DNA of 64,000 bases from Candidatus Hydrogenedentota bacterium (GCA_034408725.1 JAWXCN010000182.1:1-64000); one strand, 5' to 3'. Shown: positions 8,662-17,194, numbered from the stretch's first letter. Translations and numbers: made by a program. Notes: generated from the sequence alone by a model not told the origin.

Positions 8662-8773
8662 TCACCCAATTGTTCATGCACCAACTCTGGTGCGTTGGAG
8701 TCGCATTTATACTCCGAGCTGTCAATGGATTATATTTGACTAAATAGGGAATAGAGAACGCAGTCGAAGGCAG

Positions 8774-8942
8774 CTATCTCCCAATAATCTTGCGCAGAGT
8801 ATCGATATGGCGCGGGATGGCTTCTTTGGGGTTTTCGTCGTCTTCGTATTCGAGCACAAGGTAGCCTCGGTAACCCGCGTCTTGCAGGATGCGTGCGACG
8901 CGGGCGAAGTCGGCTGGTTCTTTTTTTCCCGTTGGGTTGGAC
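8774..8942 (-). repeat. Duplicated 3' end of the sugar-phosphate isomerase gene (direct repeat with 16265-16432)
   Basis: 169 vs 168 bp; manual alignment gives 7 substitutions and 1 extra C; encodes ...KKEPADFARVARILQDAGYRGYLVLEYEDDENPKEAIPRHIDTLRKIIGR*. Confidence 0.95.
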
Positions 8943-8969
8943 CAGCGCGCGGGGACGCGCGCCCTCCCG
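8942..8969. repeat. REP-like family A copy (CCAGCGCGCGGGGACGCGCGCCCTCCCG)
   Basis: Exact reverse complement of 61157-61184; internal GCGCG hairpin. Confidence 0.9.
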
Positions 8970-9102
8970 CATGCCCGTGATTCGACTATGAATACGACTA
9001 AAACGAGCATTGAAGGCCGTATTGCACCCGATGCGTCGCTCAATGTTTGCGGCATCGACGAAACCGGACGGATATGCATCGCGCTTACGACCTTGCTCTC
9101 CG

Positions 9103-9132
9103 TTGACATTGCACGTTACAATGCCATAGCCT
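9103..9132 (+). promoter_or_regulatory. Candidate sigma70 promoter with a dyad operator in the spacer
   Basis: TTGACA (9103-9108), 18 nt, TAGCCT (9127-9132); imperfect palindrome CATTGCACGTTACAATG at 9107-9123. Confidence 0.5.
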
Positions 9133-9585
9133 ATGATTGTGAATCACGTTATACAAATTACGTTGACGATCCTACTTGCTGTAACCCACGCGGCGGTACT
9201 TCCGGTTCATGTGGCAATCGATCACCATCGTGTTATGCCCCACGAAACCGGGACCGGCAGTCTGACGCATGAACATGACCATGAAGATGGTCTGACTCAT
9301 CACCACGACGATCATGACACGGAAAAGCCGGGTCGGCCTGATAGTTCCGGCGTTTCAGAACACGACTTCCCGGATCAAAATGATGTCCATGCTCACAGCG
9401 TTACGGATCACAGTCTTTATCGAGACCGATCTGGCAGTATTCATAACATACTGCCGACCCTGATTCCCGTTCTGGATCGGCTGGTTTTTACGAAGCCATT
9501 TCAACCGATTGAAGTCAGGGTCCCCCCGCCGATATCGGCGCCATGCCTCAGTTTCCCTTCCCTCCGCGGACCCCCATTTTGTTAG
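9133..9585 (+). CDS. His-rich leader protein with an N-terminal hydrophobic segment and C-terminal RGPP (candidate arrest peptide)
   Basis: HEHDHEDGLTHHHDDHD tract; ends ...SFPSLRGPPFC*; first ORF of the efflux operon; start may be GTG 9139. Confidence 0.7.
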   Translation: MIVNHVIQITLTILLAVTHAAVLPVHVAIDHHRVMPHETGTGSLTHEHDHEDGLTHHHDDHDTEKPGRPDSSGVSEHDFPDQNDVHAHSVTDHSLYRDRSGSIHNILPTLIPVLDRLVFTKPFQPIEVRVPPPISAPCLSFPSLRGPPFC

Positions 9586-9684
9586 CACTTCGCGAGTTGT
9601 TGCTAGCTTAATTCCTGGGTGTCAGCGTTCCCGCGCTTCTTGCCGTGGTGAACCCGCGCCTATTCGCTTGACGAGAGGAACCAC

Positions 9685-11136
9685 ATGCGGTATATCTGCC
9701 CAGCGGGGATCATTGCTCCGAGCCTGTTGCTCATTTTTGCGGGCTGTCAACATCTACCGCCTCGGCCCCTGAACCTGCCTGAAATCAAATTGTCTCTCAA
9801 GGAACGCCCGGTGGATGTGGCGCCGGTCCGTGCCTACGCGGATGCCCTCGCAATAGCGTCGGCGGAATCCGTTCCAACTTTTGATACGAGCGATGGGCTT
9901 AACTTGAACGAAGGTCTGGCGGTAGCGCTTTGGTACAACCCGGACCTGCGAATCGCCCGGATCGAGATGGAGCAGGCAAGTGCTATTGCACAAACCTCGG
10001 GGCGATGGGTGGATCCGGAACTGAACGTCTCGGGTGGCCGGAAGGAAGTGACAGAGAATACGACTGAATCGGTAACCGTAGGACAGGGCGAGGGGGAAAA
10101 GACCTATACCTGGGATGTGCGTAAAATCGCGCGCTCGTGGATTAGTATCGGCTCCTTGAGCATTACCGTCCCGGTTTCCGGCCGGCTGCGCGTCGAGAAA
10201 AAACTTCACCAGTCCGAATATTATACGCATATCCTGCGCGTCGCCGAAGCTGAGCTATTCGTGTTGGAGGAAGCGCGCAATGGCTGGGCGCATTGGAGCG
10301 CTTCTCAAGAACGCATCAAGTTACTGGATGAATATCTCGCACTCCTTGGCCGCTTTGCCCAGACGGCTGAGTCGCTCGCGAAGGTGGGCGAGCTACCATC
10401 GTCCAACGCGCGGCTCTTTATGATCGAACAAATGCGCAAGGAAGCCGAACGCGACCGTGAGCGAGCCAACGAGGCGGAGCGGCGTGTATCCCTCTTGCAG
10501 ACGCTTGGACTGCTTCCGGATGCCGCCGTCGAGCTTGTTCCCCAGTTGAGCATCGTGTACCCGCCAGAAGTTGACATTCTCGCGTTGGACGAGCACCCCA
10601 CCATTAAACGTGTTCGCGCGGAGTACCAGAGCGTTGAGGATCGGCTCAAAGTGGAACTCCGAAAACAATATCCCGACTTGACATTTTCACCCACTTACAC
10701 CGAAGAGAAAGACGAATCTTCCTTCGTGCTGGGATTCGGGTTCCCCTTGCCTGTCTGGAATGCGAACAGACAGGGTATCGCAGAAGCGGCCGGCGCGCGC
10801 GATATTGCCCGCGCGAAGTTCGAGATGGAGTATCAGCGATTGATTGCCGAAGTTGCGCAAGCGCGGGCCGCTCTGGCGGGGAGCCGCGCGCAACGCACGC
10901 GTCTTATGGAATCGGTAGTGCCAGTTATTGACCAACAAATGAGCGAAGTGCTGGCCCTGATGAACGTCGGCGAGGTCGATATTCTCCTCCTTTATGAAAC
11001 GCTTACTCAAATGCTGGAAACCCAAAAAGAACTATTGAACGCCGCATTGGCGGAAGCGCTCGCGGTATCGCGGCTTGCCGCCGTGGTCGCGTCAGACGCA
11101 ACGGCCATTTCGGCGAGCGTGGAGGTCGAGCATTGA
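9685..11136 (+). CDS. Outer membrane efflux protein, TolC/CzcC family (lipoprotein)
   Basis: Lipobox FAGC, ALWYNPDLRIAR, QYPDL, PLPVWNANRQGIAEA; GAGAGGA RBS. Confidence 0.9.
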   Translation: MRYICPAGIIAPSLLLIFAGCQHLPPRPLNLPEIKLSLKERPVDVAPVRAYADALAIASAESVPTFDTSDGLNLNEGLAVALWYNPDLRIARIEMEQASAIAQTSGRWVDPELNVSGGRKEVTENTTESVTVGQGEGEKTYTWDVRKIARSWISIGSLSITVPVSGRLRVEKKLHQSEYYTHILRVAEAELFVLEEARNGWAHWSASQERIKLLDEYLALLGRFAQTAESLAKVGELPSSNARLFMIEQMRKEAERDRERANEAERRVSLLQTLGLLPDAAVELVPQLSIVYPPEVDILALDEHPTIKRVRAEYQSVEDRLKVELRKQYPDLTFSPTYTEEKDESSFVLGFGFPLPVWNANRQGIAEAAGARDIARAKFEMEYQRLIAEVAQARAALAGSRAQRTRLMESVVPVIDQQMSEVLALMNVGEVDILLLYETLTQMLETQKELLNAALAEALAVSRLAAVVASDATAISASVEVEH

Positions 11137-12503
11137 TCATACAAATCAATCGGCGGCGGCTGTTCCTGGCAGTGGCCGTTCATATGTCCAGTCTCGCGAC
11201 GGGTTGTGCGCCGCCGCAATCTGATCAATCGCAAGTTGCGCGGGTGGATGCAGCGTCCGCGCAGATGCCTCCACCAAAGGGCGGGATACCGATTCCGCCC
11301 GCAGTTCGCGATAACCTCGGCATTACCTTTGCACAGGTACAGCAGCGTGTCGTGGCCGAGACCAGGCGCGTGCCAGGTCAATTCGAGTTACTTCCGACAG
11401 CGCGCCAGGAATATCGCGCAGTTCTCGGTGGCCGGATCGACCTTCAGGTTGAACAATTCCAGACGGTCAAGGCCGGTGAAGTGATTTTCACGATTGATTC
11501 GCCGCAATGGCGTCAAGTTCAGCACGAAGCGGTGGAGGCTGAAGGTGATATTACCATGGCGCAAGCCGGGTTGGAAGTGGCACTCGCTCGCCGGAAGGAA
11601 GCTCAATCTTCAATGGAGAGGCAAGAAGAACGCCTTCAGAACCTTTCCTCGGTAAATGTCCGCAACGCGGAACTGGAATCGACAGTTTCCATATTGCGGA
11701 ACAGCCTGCCCCGGCTCGACGCGGAAACACGCGCACTGGAAGCGGGGCTGCGCGAGGCCCATGAACACTACTCGTCCCGGCTTAACGCGCTTTCATCGGT
11801 AACGGGTTTTTCCATCGAGGAGCTACGTGAACGAAACGGAGTGGATGCAGTGTGGCGTTCAATTTCCGTGCTTGCTGTCCGCGCTCAATACACGGGCATT
11901 GTAGAAACGCTGGCAGCGAACGACGGCGGGTGGCTGGAAGAAGGAAAATTGGCATTGACGATACTTCGCCCCGAAAAAATCCGCTTTCGTGCCGAGGCTC
12001 CACAGTCCGATATCACGCTTTACCGCGAGGGGCAGTTGGCCAGCATCGTGCCACCGCAGGGCAGCAGCGTGGATATGCAGAGCGCCTTGTCCGGCGGGTT
12101 GGCGCTTGGACTTACCGCGAATGAGCGTGACCGGACACTGTCGCTCTACGTCACTCCAGACACAATTGCACCTTGGGCCAAGGCTGGCGTTGGCGGGTTT
12201 CTGGAAGTCACTCTGACCGATGAGGCCCCCAAACAATGGGCCATTCCCGCGTCGGCGGTTATTCAGGATGGACTTGAACATGTTTTCTACCGGCGAGACC
12301 CAAAGGATCCGGATCGTGCTCTTCGCGTGCTGGCAGACCTCGGCGCAAGCGATGGACGATGGATTGCGCTCAAGAGTGGCGTGAAGGAAGGCGACGAAGT
12401 CGTCCTCGACGGCGTCTATGCATTGAAACTGACAAGTTCGGGACAACAGGCTCCGCCCGGATACCACTATCACGCCGACGGCGGGTTGCATAAGAACCAC
12501 TGA
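11133..12503 (+). CDS. RND periplasmic adaptor subunit, CzcB-like
   Basis: Lipoyl-like halves around a coiled coil, AIPASAVIQDG, SGVKEGDEVV.DG, His-rich tail GYHYHADGGLHKNH; start uncertain (TTG 11133 or ATG 11184). Confidence 0.9.
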   Translation: MIIQINRRRLFLAVAVHMSSLATGCAPPQSDQSQVARVDAASAQMPPPKGGIPIPPAVRDNLGITFAQVQQRVVAETRRVPGQFELLPTARQEYRAVLGGRIDLQVEQFQTVKAGEVIFTIDSPQWRQVQHEAVEAEGDITMAQAGLEVALARRKEAQSSMERQEERLQNLSSVNVRNAELESTVSILRNSLPRLDAETRALEAGLREAHEHYSSRLNALSSVTGFSIEELRERNGVDAVWRSISVLAVRAQYTGIVETLAANDGGWLEEGKLALTILRPEKIRFRAEAPQSDITLYREGQLASIVPPQGSSVDMQSALSGGLALGLTANERDRTLSLYVTPDTIAPWAKAGVGGFLEVTLTDEAPKQWAIPASAVIQDGLEHVFYRRDPKDPDRALRVLADLGASDGRWIALKSGVKEGDEVVLDGVYALKLTSSGQQAPPGYHYHADGGLHKNH

Positions 12504-12514
12504 GAGAAACACGC

Positions 12515-15500
12515 ATGTTGAAGAAACTAATAGCGTTTTCCCTCGATAATTCGGCCCTCGTTCTGATACTGGCGGCGATGGTCGTCGGTCTGTCGGTGTT
12601 TTCAATGATGCGCATGCCGGTAGACGTGTTTCCCGAGCTCAACGCGCCAACCGTGGTCGTGTTGACGGAGGCTGGTGGCTTCGCCGCGGATGAAGTCGAA
12701 CAGTACGTCACCTTTCCAATCGAAAGCGCCGTCAACGGCTTGCCCGGTGTGCGGCGCGTGCGAAGCAGCAGCGCGATGGGGCTGAGTCTTGTCTGGGCGG
12801 AATTCGATTGGGGTACTGATATCTACCGCGCGCGGCAGGTTGTGAGCGAAGGTATGGCCATCGTCCTTGAGCAATTGCCGGAACAGGTGCATGCGGAGAT
12901 AGCGCCGATCACGGGCATCACCGGCGAGATAATGCTCATGTCGTTGTCATCGCCGGAAGGCGTTTGGTCGCCGTTGGAGTTGCGCGCTTTCGGAGAATTT
13001 GATCTGCGCCAGCGCCTTCTCGGCGTCGCAGGAGTGGCGCAAGTGGTCGCCATTGGCGGGGAATTACCTGAATACCAGGTAAATATCCGGCCGGACGCAT
13101 TGCGCCTCTATGACCTATCCGTGGAAGATGTGACAAGGGCAGCCGCCCAAGCCCACAGCACCGCGAGCGCCGGATATCTCGCCAACGTGCAAGGCATCGA
13201 AATTCCACTACGTCAGGCCGCTCGTGTCCGTTCGGAGCAGGACATCAAGGACACTGTTCTGAAATATGACGATGGAAGTCCTGTTACCATCGGTCAGGTG
13301 GCGGACGTAATACTGGCGCCGGCTCCGCCTCGCGGTACGGGTGGGTCAAAAGGCAATCCCGCGGTCGTTGTCGGAGTAAAGAAGGCCCCCTTCACCAACA
13401 CGCTGGAAATCACGAAGAATATTGATAGGGTACTCGACGATCTCCAAGCGGCATTGCCCCAGGGCGTCGAACTCGATCGGCATGTGATGCGACAGTCCGA
13501 ATTCATTACCCTGTCAATCACGAACCTGCTCCATGTCCTGCGGGACGCCGCGCTCTTCGTGGCGGTCGTGCTGGTGCTTTTCTTGCTCAATGTCCGCACT
13601 ACCCTGATTACGCTCACCGCAATTCCGTTGTCTATTGCCGTCGCGATGCTCTTCCTCGATTGGATCGGAATGACCATCAACGTAATGACCCTTGGGGGCC
13701 TGGCGATTGCAATCGGCGAGCTTGTGGACGACGCCATCATTGATGTGGAAAACGTGTATCGAAGGCTGGCGGAGAATGCGCGTCTACCAGAAGAACTTCG
13801 CAGGCCGAAGGTCCGCGTTGTTTTCGAGGCCAGCAATGAAATTCGATCTTCGGTGGTATTCGCTACAATAATAATCGTTGCGGTGTTTGTCCCGTTGCTC
13901 TTTTTGCAAGGCATGGAGGGCCGTTTTTTCCAGCCCATGGGGCTGGCATACATCGTGTCAATTCTTGCCTCGCTCCTCGTTGCGCTCACGGTCGTGCCGG
14001 CTCTATGTAAGCTACTGTTGAGCACGGACATGAAACACGCGGAACAGGAAGGAGCGCTCGTTCGCTGGCTCAAGCGCGCCTACGAACCTCTTCTTAGGTT
14101 AGCCCTTCGCTTTAACGTCGCGGTATTGGCCTTCACCGCGATGGCCACTGTTGCCACGCTCCTGCTCGCTTCGACCTATGGCAGCGACTTCCTGCCCGAA
14201 TTTAACGAGGGCACGTTCACCGTATTTACCGATGCCCCGCCGGGAACGTCGCTTGAAGAGAGTGATCGGATGGTAAAAGGTGTTGAGCGGCGAATGTCGG
14301 AAATAGAGGGTGTAAACGCCGTCGTGCGCCGCACGGGCCGGGCCGAGCGGGACGAGCATGCACACGGCGTGAACCGAAGCGAAATCGTTGTCACGGTTCA
14401 TCCGGGGCACACCAAGGGAAAAATCCGGCGCGAGATCGACGCGGTGCTGAAAGACGCGCCTTCCATCAGGACCGAGGTGGGCTCGCCCATCGGACACCAG
14501 CTTTCTCATGTGCTGTCCGGAACCCAGGCTGCGATCGCCATCAACGTGTTCGGAAATGATCTTGATACGCTCCGACAAATTGCGAAGGAGATCGAATCCG
14601 CATTGCAAGACGTGCCCGGGGCGCGAGACATACTCGCCAACCGGGAAGCGGTAGTCGAATCGCTCCCCATCCGCTATCGTCACGAGGATCTCAGACGTTG
14701 GGGCCTCACGCCCGCGGGCGCGGCGGCGCAAGTGGAAACGGCATTTAACGGAGTCACGGTCGCGTCCGTCAATGAAGGCGTCCGCCGCTATGAGATTATT
14801 GTGCGCTTGCATCCGGACAGCCGCGGAAACATCGAAGACGTGCGGCAATTTCTGCTGATCGGACAGGAGGGGGCGCAGGTGCGCCTCGAGGAAATCGCTG
14901 ACATAGGACCGGAGAACATGGCGCTCGGCATTCAACGGGAAAATGGACGGCGGAAGGCCGTGGTCTCGTTGAATGTTGCGGATGGATTTAATACCGGCGA
15001 CCTTGTCGCGCGTGTCGAGGATGTGGTAACTCCAATCGTTCAGAAATATGGCTACAGCGTCACGTACGGCGGACAGTTTGAGGCGCAACAATCCGCAAGC
15101 CGCGCCATCTACCTGATGGGCGCCTTCGTCTCGGTGGTTATCCTCGTGCTTCTCTCCAGCGCGTTCGGCTCCACCCGCGCCGCCGTACTCGTAATGCTGA
15201 ACTTGCCGCTCGCGCTCATCGGCGGGATTGTCGCGATTTTCCTAACCGAAAGCGATAATATTTTTACGAACTTCATCGCCCTGTTCGGCCTCGGCGCGTA
15301 TCAGGCCCCGGTCATTTCCATCGCGAGCATGGTTGGTTTTGTCACGCTTTTCGGTATTGCCGTTCGCAACGGGATTCTGCTCGTCAATCACTATGCCCAC
15401 CTCATGCGAAATGAAGGCAAGGACTTCGAGCAGGCCATCGTGCAGGGCAGCATGGAGCGGCTCATCCCGATTCTCATGACAGCTCTCACCGCGATACTTG

Positions 15501-15703
15501 GACTTTTTCCCATTGCGCTCGCCAAGGGAGAACCGGGCAGTGAACTGCTCGCCCCGTTAGCGATCGTGGTTCTTGGTGGTTTGGTCACGTCGACTTTTCT
15601 CAATCTTATCGTTATTCCGGCTGGGTACTATCTCCTTTTCCGGAATAAGCCACTACAGTTTAAGACCGGCACGGACATGGTGTCCGAGCCGGAGCAAACC
15701 TGA
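12515..15703 (+). CDS. czcA: Heavy-metal efflux RND permease, CusA/CzcA family
   Basis: PVDVFPEL, MTLGGLAIAIGELVDDAIIDVEN, FLPEFNEG, GRAERDEHAHGV, RLIPILMTAL; 1062 aa. Confidence 0.93.
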   Translation: MLKKLIAFSLDNSALVLILAAMVVGLSVFSMMRMPVDVFPELNAPTVVVLTEAGGFAADEVEQYVTFPIESAVNGLPGVRRVRSSSAMGLSLVWAEFDWGTDIYRARQVVSEGMAIVLEQLPEQVHAEIAPITGITGEIMLMSLSSPEGVWSPLELRAFGEFDLRQRLLGVAGVAQVVAIGGELPEYQVNIRPDALRLYDLSVEDVTRAAAQAHSTASAGYLANVQGIEIPLRQAARVRSEQDIKDTVLKYDDGSPVTIGQVADVILAPAPPRGTGGSKGNPAVVVGVKKAPFTNTLEITKNIDRVLDDLQAALPQGVELDRHVMRQSEFITLSITNLLHVLRDAALFVAVVLVLFLLNVRTTLITLTAIPLSIAVAMLFLDWIGMTINVMTLGGLAIAIGELVDDAIIDVENVYRRLAENARLPEELRRPKVRVVFEASNEIRSSVVFATIIIVAVFVPLLFLQGMEGRFFQPMGLAYIVSILASLLVALTVVPALCKLLLSTDMKHAEQEGALVRWLKRAYEPLLRLALRFNVAVLAFTAMATVATLLLASTYGSDFLPEFNEGTFTVFTDAPPGTSLEESDRMVKGVERRMSEIEGVNAVVRRTGRAERDEHAHGVNRSEIVVTVHPGHTKGKIRREIDAVLKDAPSIRTEVGSPIGHQLSHVLSGTQAAIAINVFGNDLDTLRQIAKEIESALQDVPGARDILANREAVVESLPIRYRHEDLRRWGLTPAGAAAQVETAFNGVTVASVNEGVRRYEIIVRLHPDSRGNIEDVRQFLLIGQEGAQVRLEEIADIGPENMALGIQRENGRRKAVVSLNVADGFNTGDLVARVEDVVTPIVQKYGYSVTYGGQFEAQQSASRAIYLMGAFVSVVILVLLSSAFGSTRAAVLVMLNLPLALIGGIVAIFLTESDNIFTNFIALFGLGAYQAPVISIASMVGFVTLFGIAVRNGILLVNHYAHLMRNEGKDFEQAIVQGSMERLIPILMTALTAILGLFPIALAKGEPGSELLAPLAIVVLGGLVTSTFLNLIVIPAGYYLLFRNKPLQFKTGTDMVSEPEQT

Positions 15704-15717
15704 CCAAGGAGTCGAAC

Positions 15718-16158
15718 ATGCACCGGACACTTGCAACCCTCATCGTGATCACTACCGTTCTTGCCGGATGTGGCGATCAGCAGCCAGCCGCACCCGCCGC
15801 GTCCACGCCGCCTGCTCCCGCTTCCCAGGGTAAACTCGCAAACGTTCCGCCGATGCGCAACTTTGCGCCCGTGAAGATTGGCCCTTACGACGTCCAGCCC
15901 ATGTTTGAAGAGGAGATCGTAGATGGCCACTTTAACATTCGGACCAGTGGAGGTGACGTAAAGGCCGTGCGGATATGGGTAGGCCCCGAGGATGCCACCG
16001 GCGTCATGGTAGTCAAGACCGAAATCGAGAACGACTACAACCACGGCCATGTCGAAGTTCCAAACCCAGTTCCTGCCGACGCGAAACTATGGATCGAAAT
16101 CGAAACTACAGCCGGCGAGACGCATAAGGGCAGCACCTTGCTGAAGCAGGCCGTGTGA
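15718..16158 (+). CDS. Lipoprotein, last gene of the efflux operon, possibly metal-binding
   Basis: AAGGAG RBS, lipobox LAGC, Pro/Ala linker, YNHGHVEVP. Confidence 0.85.
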   Translation: MHRTLATLIVITTVLAGCGDQQPAAPAASTPPAPASQGKLANVPPMRNFAPVKIGPYDVQPMFEEEIVDGHFNIRTSGGDVKAVRIWVGPEDATGVMVVKTEIENDYNHGHVEVPNPVPADAKLWIEIETTAGETHKGSTLLKQAV

Positions 16159-16264: not shown

Positions 16265-17194
16265 TTATCTGCCTATAATTTTGCGCAGAGTATCGATATG
16301 GCGCGGGATGGCTTCTTTGGGGTTTTCGTCGTCTTCGTATTCGAGCACGAGGTAGCCTCGGTAACCCGCGTCTTGCAGGATGCGCGCGACGCGGGCGAAG
16401 TCGGCTGGTTCTTTTTTTCCATTGGGTTGGACGGAGACTTTGATCTGCGCGTTGACGGTGTAGGGTGCGATCTGGGCCATGTCTGCGTAAGGGTCGGGCG
16501 TGTGGAAGTTTCCACCGTCGAAATTCACGCCGAACCACGGTGATTCTTTCACACCTTTGATGATACGCAGCATGTGTTCGCCGGTGGCGGTAATGCCGCC
16601 GTGGTTTTCGAGCGCGAGCACGACACCCTTTTGCGCGGCATAGTCCAGAGATTCATTGATCGCGCTGATGCAACGCTCGAGCGCGGCGTCTTCGGTGTCG
16701 CCTTCGGGAACTTCACCCGCAAAGATGCGGATAACAGGAGCGCCCAAGAGCGCGGCGTGGTCGATCCACTCGCGGGTCATGCGAAGTTCTTCCTCGCGTA
16801 TCGGGCCTTCGGGCACGCAAAAGTTGTTGCCGATGGCCGTGCCGGAAATGTCCAGACCCAGCCGGAACGTGAGCTGCTTTAACTGGAGCAGGTATTCCGG
16901 CGTAACCTCCGCTGGAAAATAGTAGGAGGTGGGCTCGCACCCGTCCAGATTCAGTTCCGCGCAGTACCGCACGAAATCTTCGAGATTCATGTCCGCCTTC
17001 GCATACTCCTCCGCCGGCGCGCGATTCGGCAGCATCCGGTGGAATGAATACGCCGCAAGACTGAGTTTCATGTAAGGTCCGTGCACGCGCTCCACCGGCG
17101 ACGCCGCCCGCGCGCCCTCCGGCAACAACGCCCCCGCGCCCAGGGCCGCAGCACCAGCAATAAACGAACGCCGGGAAAGTTCGGATAATGACAT
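16265..17194 (-). CDS. Tat-exported sugar phosphate isomerase/epimerase (xylose isomerase-like TIM barrel)
   Basis: SRRSFI twin-arginine signal; ALENHGG, VNFDGGNF, GYRGYLVLEYE. Confidence 0.9.
   Translation of the reverse strand: MSLSELSRRSFIAGAAALGAGALLPEGARAASPVERVHGPYMKLSLAAYSFHRMLPNRAPAEEYAKADMNLEDFVRYCAELNLDGCEPTSYYFPAEVTPEYLLQLKQLTFRLGLDISGTAIGNNFCVPEGPIREEELRMTREWIDHAALLGAPVIRIFAGEVPEGDTEDAALERCISAINESLDYAAQKGVVLALENHGGITATGEHMLRIIKGVKESPWFGVNFDGGNFHTPDPYADMAQIAPYTVNAQIKVSVQPNGKKEPADFARVARILQDAGYRGYLVLEYEDDENPKEAIPRHIDTLRKIIGR

Follow-up and report, generated by a model that had tools for sequence, protein, structure and literature searches.

A conserved reading frame ending in R-(G/A)-P-P as a putative arrest leader of a heavy-metal-type efflux cassette in Candidatus Hydrogenedentota

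What controls the genes of a metal-efflux-type pump that carries no regulator of its own, and what is the small open reading frame (ORF) at its head for? Both questions are raised by a locus in a 64,000-nucleotide (nt) stretch of DNA from a Candidatus Hydrogenedentota bacterium (GCA_034408725.1 JAWXCN010000182.1:1-64000; this whole stretch is called the window below), in which a 150-residue ORF, hereafter the leader, precedes a czcC/cusC-like outer-membrane factor gene and the remaining genes of a resistance-nodulation-division (RND) efflux pump. An earlier annotation made from the sequence by itself, the sequence-only reading, had proposed that the leader senses metal through ribosome arrest and so gates a CzcCBA operon. 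Having compared the locus with its relatives, we consider it reasonably probable that the leader encodes a regulatory nascent peptide, translated as the first cistron of a leaderless mRNA, and that its metal-tuned arrest at an R-G-P-P motif keeps the pump genes expressed. Coordinates of all features are collected in Table 1.

Table 1. Features of the leader, its flanks and the efflux cassette, in window coordinates unless a related locus is named.
Feature	Position	Strand	Basis or remark
Left copy of 155-nt direct repeat bracketing the cassette	8775-8929		Right copy 16266-16420, 97% identical
Promoter-like region abutting the leader ATG	9093-9132	+	Pattern match
Leader ORF, 150 amino acids (aa), first cistron of the operon	9133-9585	+	ORF reading and family conservation
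N-terminal anchor helix, residues 2-32, ending H-V-A-I-D-H	9136-9228	+	AlphaFold2 and alignment
His/Asp/Glu-rich predicted disordered tract, residues 31-93	9223-9411	+	Composition, predicted local distance difference test (pLDDT)
C-rich, G-poor 3' end of the leader, candidate rut-like stretch	9526-9585	+	C/G skew
R-G-P-P codons CGC GGA CCC CCA, putative arrest site	9565-9576	+	Invariance and analogy with the CruR toeprint
Small predicted hairpin with the leader stop codon in its 5' arm, GUUAGCAC / UUGCUAGC	9581-9607	+	Minimum free energy (MFE) fold
Spacer from leader to czcC-like gene, 99 nt	9586-9684	+	Shine-Dalgarno (SD) sequence GAGAGGAA at 9673-9680, ATG at 9685
Outer-membrane factor, czcC/cusC-like lipoprotein	9685-11136	+	Pfam OEP, 98 bits
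Periplasmic adaptor (membrane-fusion protein)	11133-12503	+	Pfam HlyD_D23 and HlyD_3; NCBIfam RND_mfp and CzcB/NccB both under cut-off
RND permease, heavy-metal-efflux type	12515-15703	+	Pfam ACR_tran, 816 bits
146-aa lipoprotein, fifth cassette gene	15718-16158	+	In 5 of 5 leader-bearing genomes searched, 41-68% identity; without Pfam family
Divergent P-type ATPase, related locus	L021:1-1407	-
Divergent P-type ATPase, related locus	L023:2014-3423	+
Divergent P-type ATPase, related locus	L026:3-1298	-

A leader family with a common C-terminal motif

The translated leader begins MIVNHVIQITLTILLAVTHAAVLPVHVAIDHH and finishes FPSLRGPPFC, and the hydrophobic N-terminal segment, His/Asp/Glu-rich middle and SLRGPPFC ending described in the sequence-only reading are all seen in it. 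With the window leader as query, Pfam (DUF2946 included, E <= 0.1) and NCBIfam return no family match, a word-based protein search finds the leader itself and nothing else, and the related-locus search of genome contigs yields no relatives. Relatives came from an exhaustive phmmer search of 1.84 billion representatives, whose 12 non-self matches all finish in RGPP plus two or three residues, and from profile word searches, which contributed eight additional proteins, seven of them finishing R(G/A)PP plus two or three residues; six of the seven non-self matches of the profile word search have the ending R(G/A)PPLA(C), and the C-terminus of member P0021 reads RAPPRA. A profile search of the phylum (135 genomes) gave matches in 17 genomes, with the motif in the 15 better ones; the two matches lacking it are the weakest (E = 1.8e-4 and 7.5e-3). 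An ORF of the same build precedes the czcC orthologue in each of four related genomes, and these ORFs end SLRGPPSC, YLRGPPVC, APRAPPLA and ALRGPPLA, respectively. The pooled set holds 36 records, representing 33 distinct sequences, and in these searches the family occurs in one small phylum only; the 21 aligned sequences are 129-185 aa long. Since the family is conserved, a chance ORF was ruled out, and on this comparative evidence the leader is a real, conserved gene.

Gene order is kept as well. We compared 15 family loci, 14 of which have at least 1.2 kb of downstream DNA, the fifteenth ending 90 nt past the leader stop. In all 14, a czcC homologue (36-100% identity) directly follows the leader. 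Of 41 relatives, five have a czcC match better than 1e-100, and it is these five that carry a motif-bearing leader, assuming that the phylum search covered all 41.

R[GA]PP stands at the C-terminus of 32 of the 33 distinct members (23 RGPP, 9 RAPP, 1 neither), and these two are the only variants of the motif in the family. Two residues follow the second Pro in 29 of the 32 motif-bearing members, three in 2 and five in 1. In the window, RGPP spans residues 145-148, exactly where the sequence-only reading had placed it, and is followed by codons for F and C and by TAG (9583-9585). R145, P147 and P148 are the only invariant columns in the 21-sequence alignment, for which mean column identity is 29%, and Leu immediately precedes Arg in 26 of the 32. 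The frequency of this ending exceeds chance by far. Different synonymous codons encode the motif at different loci; selection therefore acts on the peptide and not on the RNA. The sole motif-less distinct member, P0003, has a tail that looks like the usual ALRGPPLA ending read in the adjacent frame, which suggests a frameshift or sequencing error in its single 1.5-kb contig.

Such a C-terminus has precedents. Of the arrest cores, RGPP and RAPP are reported to be the most versatile and robust; they resist EF-P and are depleted from proteomes (PMC12992588). Small proteins, secreted or membrane-bound, whose genes lie upstream of others, metal-homeostasis genes included, are enriched in them close to the C-terminus (PMC12992588), and the leader likewise is a small membrane protein encoded upstream of its presumed target on the same strand. 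By analogy with the CruR toeprint (PMC12992588), Pro147 would occupy the P site and Pro148 the A site at the putative arrest. The proposal of an arrest-peptide leader is thus supported in its first part, the motif being kept at the amino-acid level in a manner that fits the ApdA/ApdP/CruR class; the hairpin mechanism, the novelty as an 'efflux-side version' and the CzcCBA label that came with it found no support, as detailed below.

AlphaFold2, run on 21 sequences, is confident for helix 2-32 alone, with pLDDT of 89-97 over the first 30 residues and ~50-57 over residues 31-120, so that the leader peptide is, as modelled, without a folded domain. The N-terminal flank of the helix carries Lys or Arg in 16 of the 21 sequences and is net acidic in none, and the C-terminal flank is acidic or balanced in all 21, which suggests an N-in/C-out topology. 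The family anchor ends H-x-A-x-x-H, with H26 and H31 nearly invariant (residues 26-31 of the window leader, nt 9208-9225). A second near-invariant His motif appears as a G-x-P-H-x-H column. The stretch between anchor and R-G-P-P in the window leader contains 13.0% His and 16.5% Asp plus Glu, and its VHAHSVTDH (9385-9411) is a remnant of the family motif G-x-P-H-x-H..H-x-H-S..D-H. From the PHxH column to the Arg there are 62 residues in 10 of the 21 sequences, 57 in 6 and 63-66 in 5; the distance from anchor to PHxH is variable (48-80 residues). The alignment has no conserved Cys column, the middle region holding 0-7 Cys per member, and the conserved ligands are His. His-rich disordered proteins are able to bind metals. 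The comparison by which the sequence-only reading had proposed to be judged, of ORFs upstream of czcC homologues, thus came out in its favour: these ORFs keep the anchor helix, the His motifs and, beside the stop, R(A/G)PP.

These features could also belong to a mature protein. The leader might be an accessory pump protein, that is, an anchored, His-rich periplasmic metal-binder, chaperone or regulator with a CzcI-like role, in which L-R-G/A-P-P-x-x would serve as a protein-level signal for docking or proteolysis. The conserved His motifs, the metal-binding capacity of His-rich disordered proteins in general, the restricted length, and a constant position in a cassette that also encodes a conserved periplasmic lipoprotein all agree with this, as does the case of CzcI, which lies upstream of czcCBA and is reported to lack a Pro motif (PMC9973294). 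We nevertheless judge it unlikely: the sole invariant residues are those of the arrest core, only the two strongest arrest variants occur (PMC12992588), AlphaFold2 predicts no folded domain, and a mature protein would offer little reason for fixed distances from His to motif and, at two codons, from motif to stop. Such a role would in any case be compatible with an arrest leader and does not exclude one.

Another possibility is an arrest leader that senses no metal, monitoring Sec, YidC, the signal recognition particle or the envelope in the manner of SecM, MifM, VemP or ApdP, or acting as a constitutive pause that sets translation-transcription coupling. Most characterised RAPP-type peptides do monitor protein localisation (PMC12992588; PMC10987492; PMC7897499), an anchor helix with N-in/C-out topology would suit release by translocation pulling, and the PHxH of the window copy is degenerate. 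However, the genes downstream encode a metal-type RND pump and not Sec or YidC, the near-invariant His at a fixed spacing from the motif suggest a ligand site, and a P-type (E1-E2) ATPase is the divergent neighbour of the leader in 3 of 10 related loci. We find this quite unlikely, and return to the metal-tuned arrest leader in asking how its signal would reach the pump genes.

From arrest to pump expression

Where the transcript begins is suggested by the promoter-like region at the leader ATG, which can be read in two overlapping ways: TTGCTC (9093-9098), 18 nt, TACAAT (9117-9122) and 10 nt to the ATG, or TTGACA (9103-9108) with TAGCCT (9127-9132). Scanning for TTGNNN-N16-18-TANNNT-N4-10-ATG found the pattern in 14 of the 15 family loci, ending 6-10 nt ahead of the leader ATG, against a background of 114 of 41,267 ATG triplets (0.28%) in 60 contigs of the same genome. 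A stricter sigma-70 scan of 8700-9800 returned no sites. As the promoter abuts the ATG, the leader ORF would head the transcript, and its mRNA is probably leaderless or nearly so.

The family with its invariant motif and gene order, the topology signals, the fixed spacing, the promoter position and the C>G skew are observations; for what follows, we infer stalling, metal binding, the polarity of the response and the route of coupling, and propose this course of events. During synthesis, the N-terminal helix would anchor the peptide N-in/C-out, and the unstructured His-rich middle would pass to the periplasmic side. Peptide-bond formation would stall once the ribosome arrives at R-G-P-P, two codons ahead of the stop. 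At its fixed distance of 57-66 residues from the arrest site, the His motif would by then have left the exit tunnel and would probably be level with the translocon exit or past it. Binding of metal to the His motifs would alter the rate at which the arrest is released, with metal prolonging the arrest as in CutF, and the arrested ribosome would keep the downstream genes expressed. The favoured route for this last step is that the C-rich 3' end of the leader is shielded from Rho, as in CruR.

Several features of the locus are consistent with the Rho route. C minus G over the last 60 nt of the leader is +22% in the window; all 15 loci fall between +13 and +33%, with a mean of +24.6%, and the locus-wide value is ~1%. 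At third codon positions, C3 is 0.45 and G3 0.25, versus 0.37 and 0.31 (Fisher p = 0.005, the relatives not being independent). A Rho gene is present in the genome. The spacer between leader and czcC, measured at 99 nt in the window where the sequence-only reading gave ~100, is 76-111 nt long in the 13 loci in which the czcC start could be placed. A Rho route is possible because a C>G bubble is found in all 15 loci, the Rho gene is present and the spacer is long and untranslated; we favour Rho-type coupling as more plausible than unmasking of the czcC SD.

A number of points weigh against the arrest-leader reading and its coupling. R(A/G)PP by itself is no guarantee of arrest: upstream tunnel residues matter too, and in this family they are unconserved apart from the Leu before Arg. 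In the window leader itself, the P-H-x-H core reads P-D-Q-N, both His being lost. That metal prolongs the arrest is assumed from the function of the pump, and CruR behaves in the opposite way. The C>G skew is partly expected from Pro/Ala/Leu-rich coding, and the third-position excess is modest. No conserved RNA feature able to transmit an arrest was demonstrated. RNAalifold gave no consensus pairs for the 13 loci, a weak negative since the MAFFT alignment of the spacers is poor; blocking the footprint of a stalled ribosome raised SD accessibility by >0.15 in none of them; and pairing of the SD with that footprint is strong in 4 of the 13 loci, partial in 3 and absent in 6. It is possible, too, that the leader is a stable peptide with a function of its own.

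The RNA results bear directly on the coupling put forward in the sequence-only reading, by which a stalled ribosome melts a hairpin that hides the czcC SD, as in SecM/secA or CutF/cutO. The complementary words do exist in the window: TTCCT and GTCAGCG (9612-9627) face CGCTTGAC and AGGAA (9665-9680). CutF does act through an SD-shielding stem-loop (bioRxiv 10.1101/2025.02.05.636593), and in four loci (L017, L019, L024, L031) the SD is predicted to pair with the CCUCC-like codons of the arrest site. As a real feature, however, the hairpin did not hold up. It is absent from the MFE fold of 9540-9700, the region that had been suggested for folding, which is itself unremarkable (z = -1.32, with 20 of 200 shuffles folding as well), and its outer helix, said to occlude part of the SD, has a pair probability of 0.00 in that region and 0.014-0.021 in the spacer alone, with no conserved pairs in the 13 loci. 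Its 5' arm begins 36 nt past the A-site codon, which ends at 9576, and by what is generally known of ribosome footprints this lies beyond the reach of an RGPP-stalled ribosome. Moreover, the SD is already ~40% unpaired on average across the 13 loci, no locus opens on footprint blocking, and six lack SD-footprint pairing altogether. The hairpin, with pair probabilities of <= 0.02, absent from the MFE fold and unconserved, was therefore rejected, and we hold SD unmasking of this kind to be very unlikely.

Two further RNA candidates were followed. A SecM-like closing helix between the CCUCC-like arrest codons and the SD was promising in single folds but, in the ensembles, was strong at no more than the four loci named above, and was rejected. 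Of 15 local folds, 11 contain a hairpin comparable to the small one around the leader stop codon (Table 1), and some base changes look compensatory; its mean local z is -0.95, a 7-mer complement test gives P = 0.0014 and an MFE-pairing test P = 0.12, the relatives again not being independent, and its status is doubtful. Rfam 15 has no matches at E <= 1 in 8700-10000 and none at gathering score in the 10 related loci, and a scan of the spacer for intrinsic terminators found no terminator-like site.

Relation to known arrest leaders and metal sensors

The closest parallel in design is CruR (Bordetella pertussis Bp2923, a DUF2946 protein), a copper-responsive leader with a metal motif at conserved spacing from RAPP, which gates Rho termination from a C>G region (PMC9426467). 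Like CruR, the leader is a small first-position ORF of a metal-homeostasis operon with a hydrophobic or signal-like N-terminus and a poorly structured body, carries a metal-ligand motif at conserved spacing from a C-terminal motif next to the stop (RAPP in CruR), and is followed, after a C>G-rich 3' region, by a long spacer of 76-111 nt in the family versus 162 nt in CruR (PMC9426467). The two differ in that the ligands are CXXC in CruR and His in the family, and CruR precedes a TonB-dependent importer whereas the family precedes an RND efflux pump; since an efflux pump stands in place of an importer, the metal response would be opposite in sign to that of CruR. In addition, the mRNA of the family is predicted to be leaderless, and the family was found in one small phylum.

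The resemblance is one of design and not of detectable descent. Like DUF2946-type proteins, the leader heads a metal-homeostasis operon, has a proline stalling motif at its C-terminus and is followed by a long spacer, yet the DUF2946 Pfam model (PF11162) matches 0 of 21 members at E <= 1, the CXXC/CXXXC motif of DUF2946 is not conserved in the 21-sequence alignment, and hhalign of the family against the genome's own DUF2946-like ORF gives a probability of 1.9%. Homology to DUF2946, or to that DUF2946-like RGPP ORF, was thus not detected.

SecM of E. coli has a RAGP core and a long upstream arrest sequence, controls secA through an SD-sequestering hairpin and is not metal-related. The leader resembles it in having a C-terminal Arg-x-x-Pro core a few codons before the stop, a presumably Sec-engaged chain and a next cistron that the arrest would control; it differs in that SecM works with a defined SD-sequestering hairpin and RAGP, and has no link to metal.

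CutF of Rhodobacter capsulatus brings the parallel closer to detoxification: its chain is exported as it is made, and periplasmic Cu lengthens the stall, by which a detoxifying oxidase is turned on (PMC9973294; bioRxiv 10.1101/2025.02.05.636593). CutF-like proteins, among them SilD, CusD and CopL, are most often followed by the OEP gene of an RND efflux system, and His-only motifs occur in some of the clusters (PMC9973294). By analogy, a metal-induced stall of an exported nascent sensor would likewise switch on a detoxification gene here. CutF, however, stalls on PPP, needs EF-P and melts an SD-shielding stem-loop, whereas the family has RGPP or RAPP and an SD shield is unsupported. As far as sequence goes, much of the rule set that defines 'CutF-like' proteins may apply to the family: the place of PP and the downstream neighbour follow it, the window leader has 150 aa where the filter is '<150', relatives reach 185 aa, and the N-terminus is anchor-like.

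ApdA, ApdP, ApcA variants and seven Streptomyces lividans peptides have the same RAPP/RGPP core in the same place, near the C-terminus of a small membrane or secreted upstream protein, and two of the S. lividans arrest peptides precede metal-related genes and have conserved Cys/His (PMC12992588). Their N-termini are unrelated to that of the leader and their downstream genes differ, and arrest is demonstrated for them, whereas here it is predicted from sequence. CzcI of Cupriavidus metallidurans is a small ORF directly upstream of czcCBA-type genes, also suggested to be a metal-sensing regulator; it is reported without a C-terminal proline motif (PMC9973294), and the likeness is by description only.

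By these analogies, the leader is most likely a RAPP/RGPP arrest leader of the CruR/CutF kind. The 'efflux-side version' that the sequence-only reading implied to be novel is already covered by CutF and the survey of CutF-like proteins (PMC9973294; bioRxiv 10.1101/2025.02.05.636593). A literature search for arrest or upstream-ORF leaders before czcC, RND or heavy-metal genes returned only the works cited, the supplementary lists of PMC9973294 and PMC12992588 lying outside it; the main text of PMC12992588 contains none of the words 'efflux', 'czc' and 'RND'. What is new here is a distinct, His-based family, predicted to be leaderless; the design itself is published. We also entertain, as possible rather than probable, a more specific account. 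In it, the leader, which has no sequence relationship with DUF2946, would sense metal through the His of its nascent chain and be the sole regulator of the RND cassette, with a 57- or 62-residue ruler placing the sensor just past tunnel and SecYEG. The ribosome would then read periplasmic divalent metal and gate Rho-dependent polarity on a leaderless transcript, convergently with CruR and CutF, in what would be the first arrest-controlled RND metal pump.

The cassette, further leads and significance

Is the pump downstream a CzcCBA system? Judged from its sequence, the permease is a heavy-metal-type RND protein whose heavy-metal efflux (HME) subgroup and substrate are undefined. Transmembrane helix (TMH) IV reads AIGELVDDAIIDVEN, i.e. 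AIG-ELV-DDA-IID-VEN, where the HME1/2 signature is DFG-x3-DGA-x3-VEN (PMC3637150), so the permease is without the HME1/HME2 signature and the first Asp of the proton-relay signature is replaced. It scores 681.9 bits against TIGR00914 (CusA/CzcA), for which the cut-off is 701.45. With a score under the cut-off and AIG-x3-DDA-x3-VEN in TMH IV, the name 'CzcCBA' is therefore a loose one.

The unit extends beyond the permease. The terminal lipoprotein is shared by the leader-bearing genomes, and the unit is therefore, on gene content, a cassette of five genes: leader, outer-membrane factor, adaptor, RND permease and small lipoprotein. In 4 of the 5 genomes, leader and lipoprotein share contig and strand, with the lipoprotein ~6.5 kb downstream; at 61-68% identity (41-43% for one paralogue), it is more conserved than leader or czcC. 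AlphaFold2 models it as a beta-sandwich (pLDDT 68.5), and the best match of the model in the PDB is the H. pylori copper-resistance determinant CrdA (E = 1.3e-4, template-modelling scores 0.47/0.60), a hint that it may be a partner that binds metal in the periplasm, and perhaps that the pump transports Cu/Ag.

That no metal regulator is encoded in this islet, as the sequence-only reading stated, is borne out, the ORFs being the leader, an OEP protein, a HlyD-type adaptor, an ACR_tran permease and the small lipoprotein. No regulator gene was found among the largest upstream ORFs of the 10 related loci either. The divergent P-type ATPases seen at three of these loci (Table 1) may, from their sequence and position, be metal exporters that share the promoter region.

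The cassette is patchy within its genus (2 of 5 genomes) and is bracketed by a direct repeat. The left copy sits in a truncated duplicate (8774-9109, - strand) of the 3' end of a xylose-isomerase-like TIM-barrel gene (16265-17194, - strand). In one public DNA run, a contig of depth 6.6 links 16280 to 8790, joining the end of the cassette to its start; this junction could reflect a circular form, a tandem copy or an assembly effect caused by the repeat.

Other leaders of this general build may exist. The same genome has a second small ORF (L034:1448-1798, - strand) of 116 aa with a hydrophobic N-terminus, a His-rich stretch and the ending RRGPPSL; it has a sub-threshold DUF2946 match (17.7 bits) and lies upstream of a prepilin-type (DUF1559-like, pseudopilin-like) protein ending HEASHGHEH. 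A similar pair is found on another contig (L035:1480-1887, - strand), in which the leader ends RPRDPPVFPIFS, without RGPP or RAPP. From these sequences, the two pairs may represent another arrest-leader system in this genome. A language model lists look-alikes of 9133-9582, of ~150 aa and scoring 0.96-0.97, in clusters from Nitrospirota, Nitrospinota and Bacteroidota, the last with DUF6769 on 35% of members; they are leads only, and analogous leaders may occur in other phyla.

The findings amount to no new principle, as both the design and its link with RND outer-membrane genes have been described before (PMC9973294). Should the proposed reading be true, an independent, His-based family would join the short list of nascent-peptide metal sensors, CruR and CutF, and nascent-peptide control would be extended to an RND metal-efflux pump from an uncultured and little-studied phylum. 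With an invariant RGPP/RAPP core, a two-codon tail, a fixed ruler and a leaderless start, the family offers a natural data set on how ligand binding is transmitted to an arrested ribosome. For annotation, the ~150-aa 'hypothetical proteins' in front of such pumps would then be regulatory leaders.

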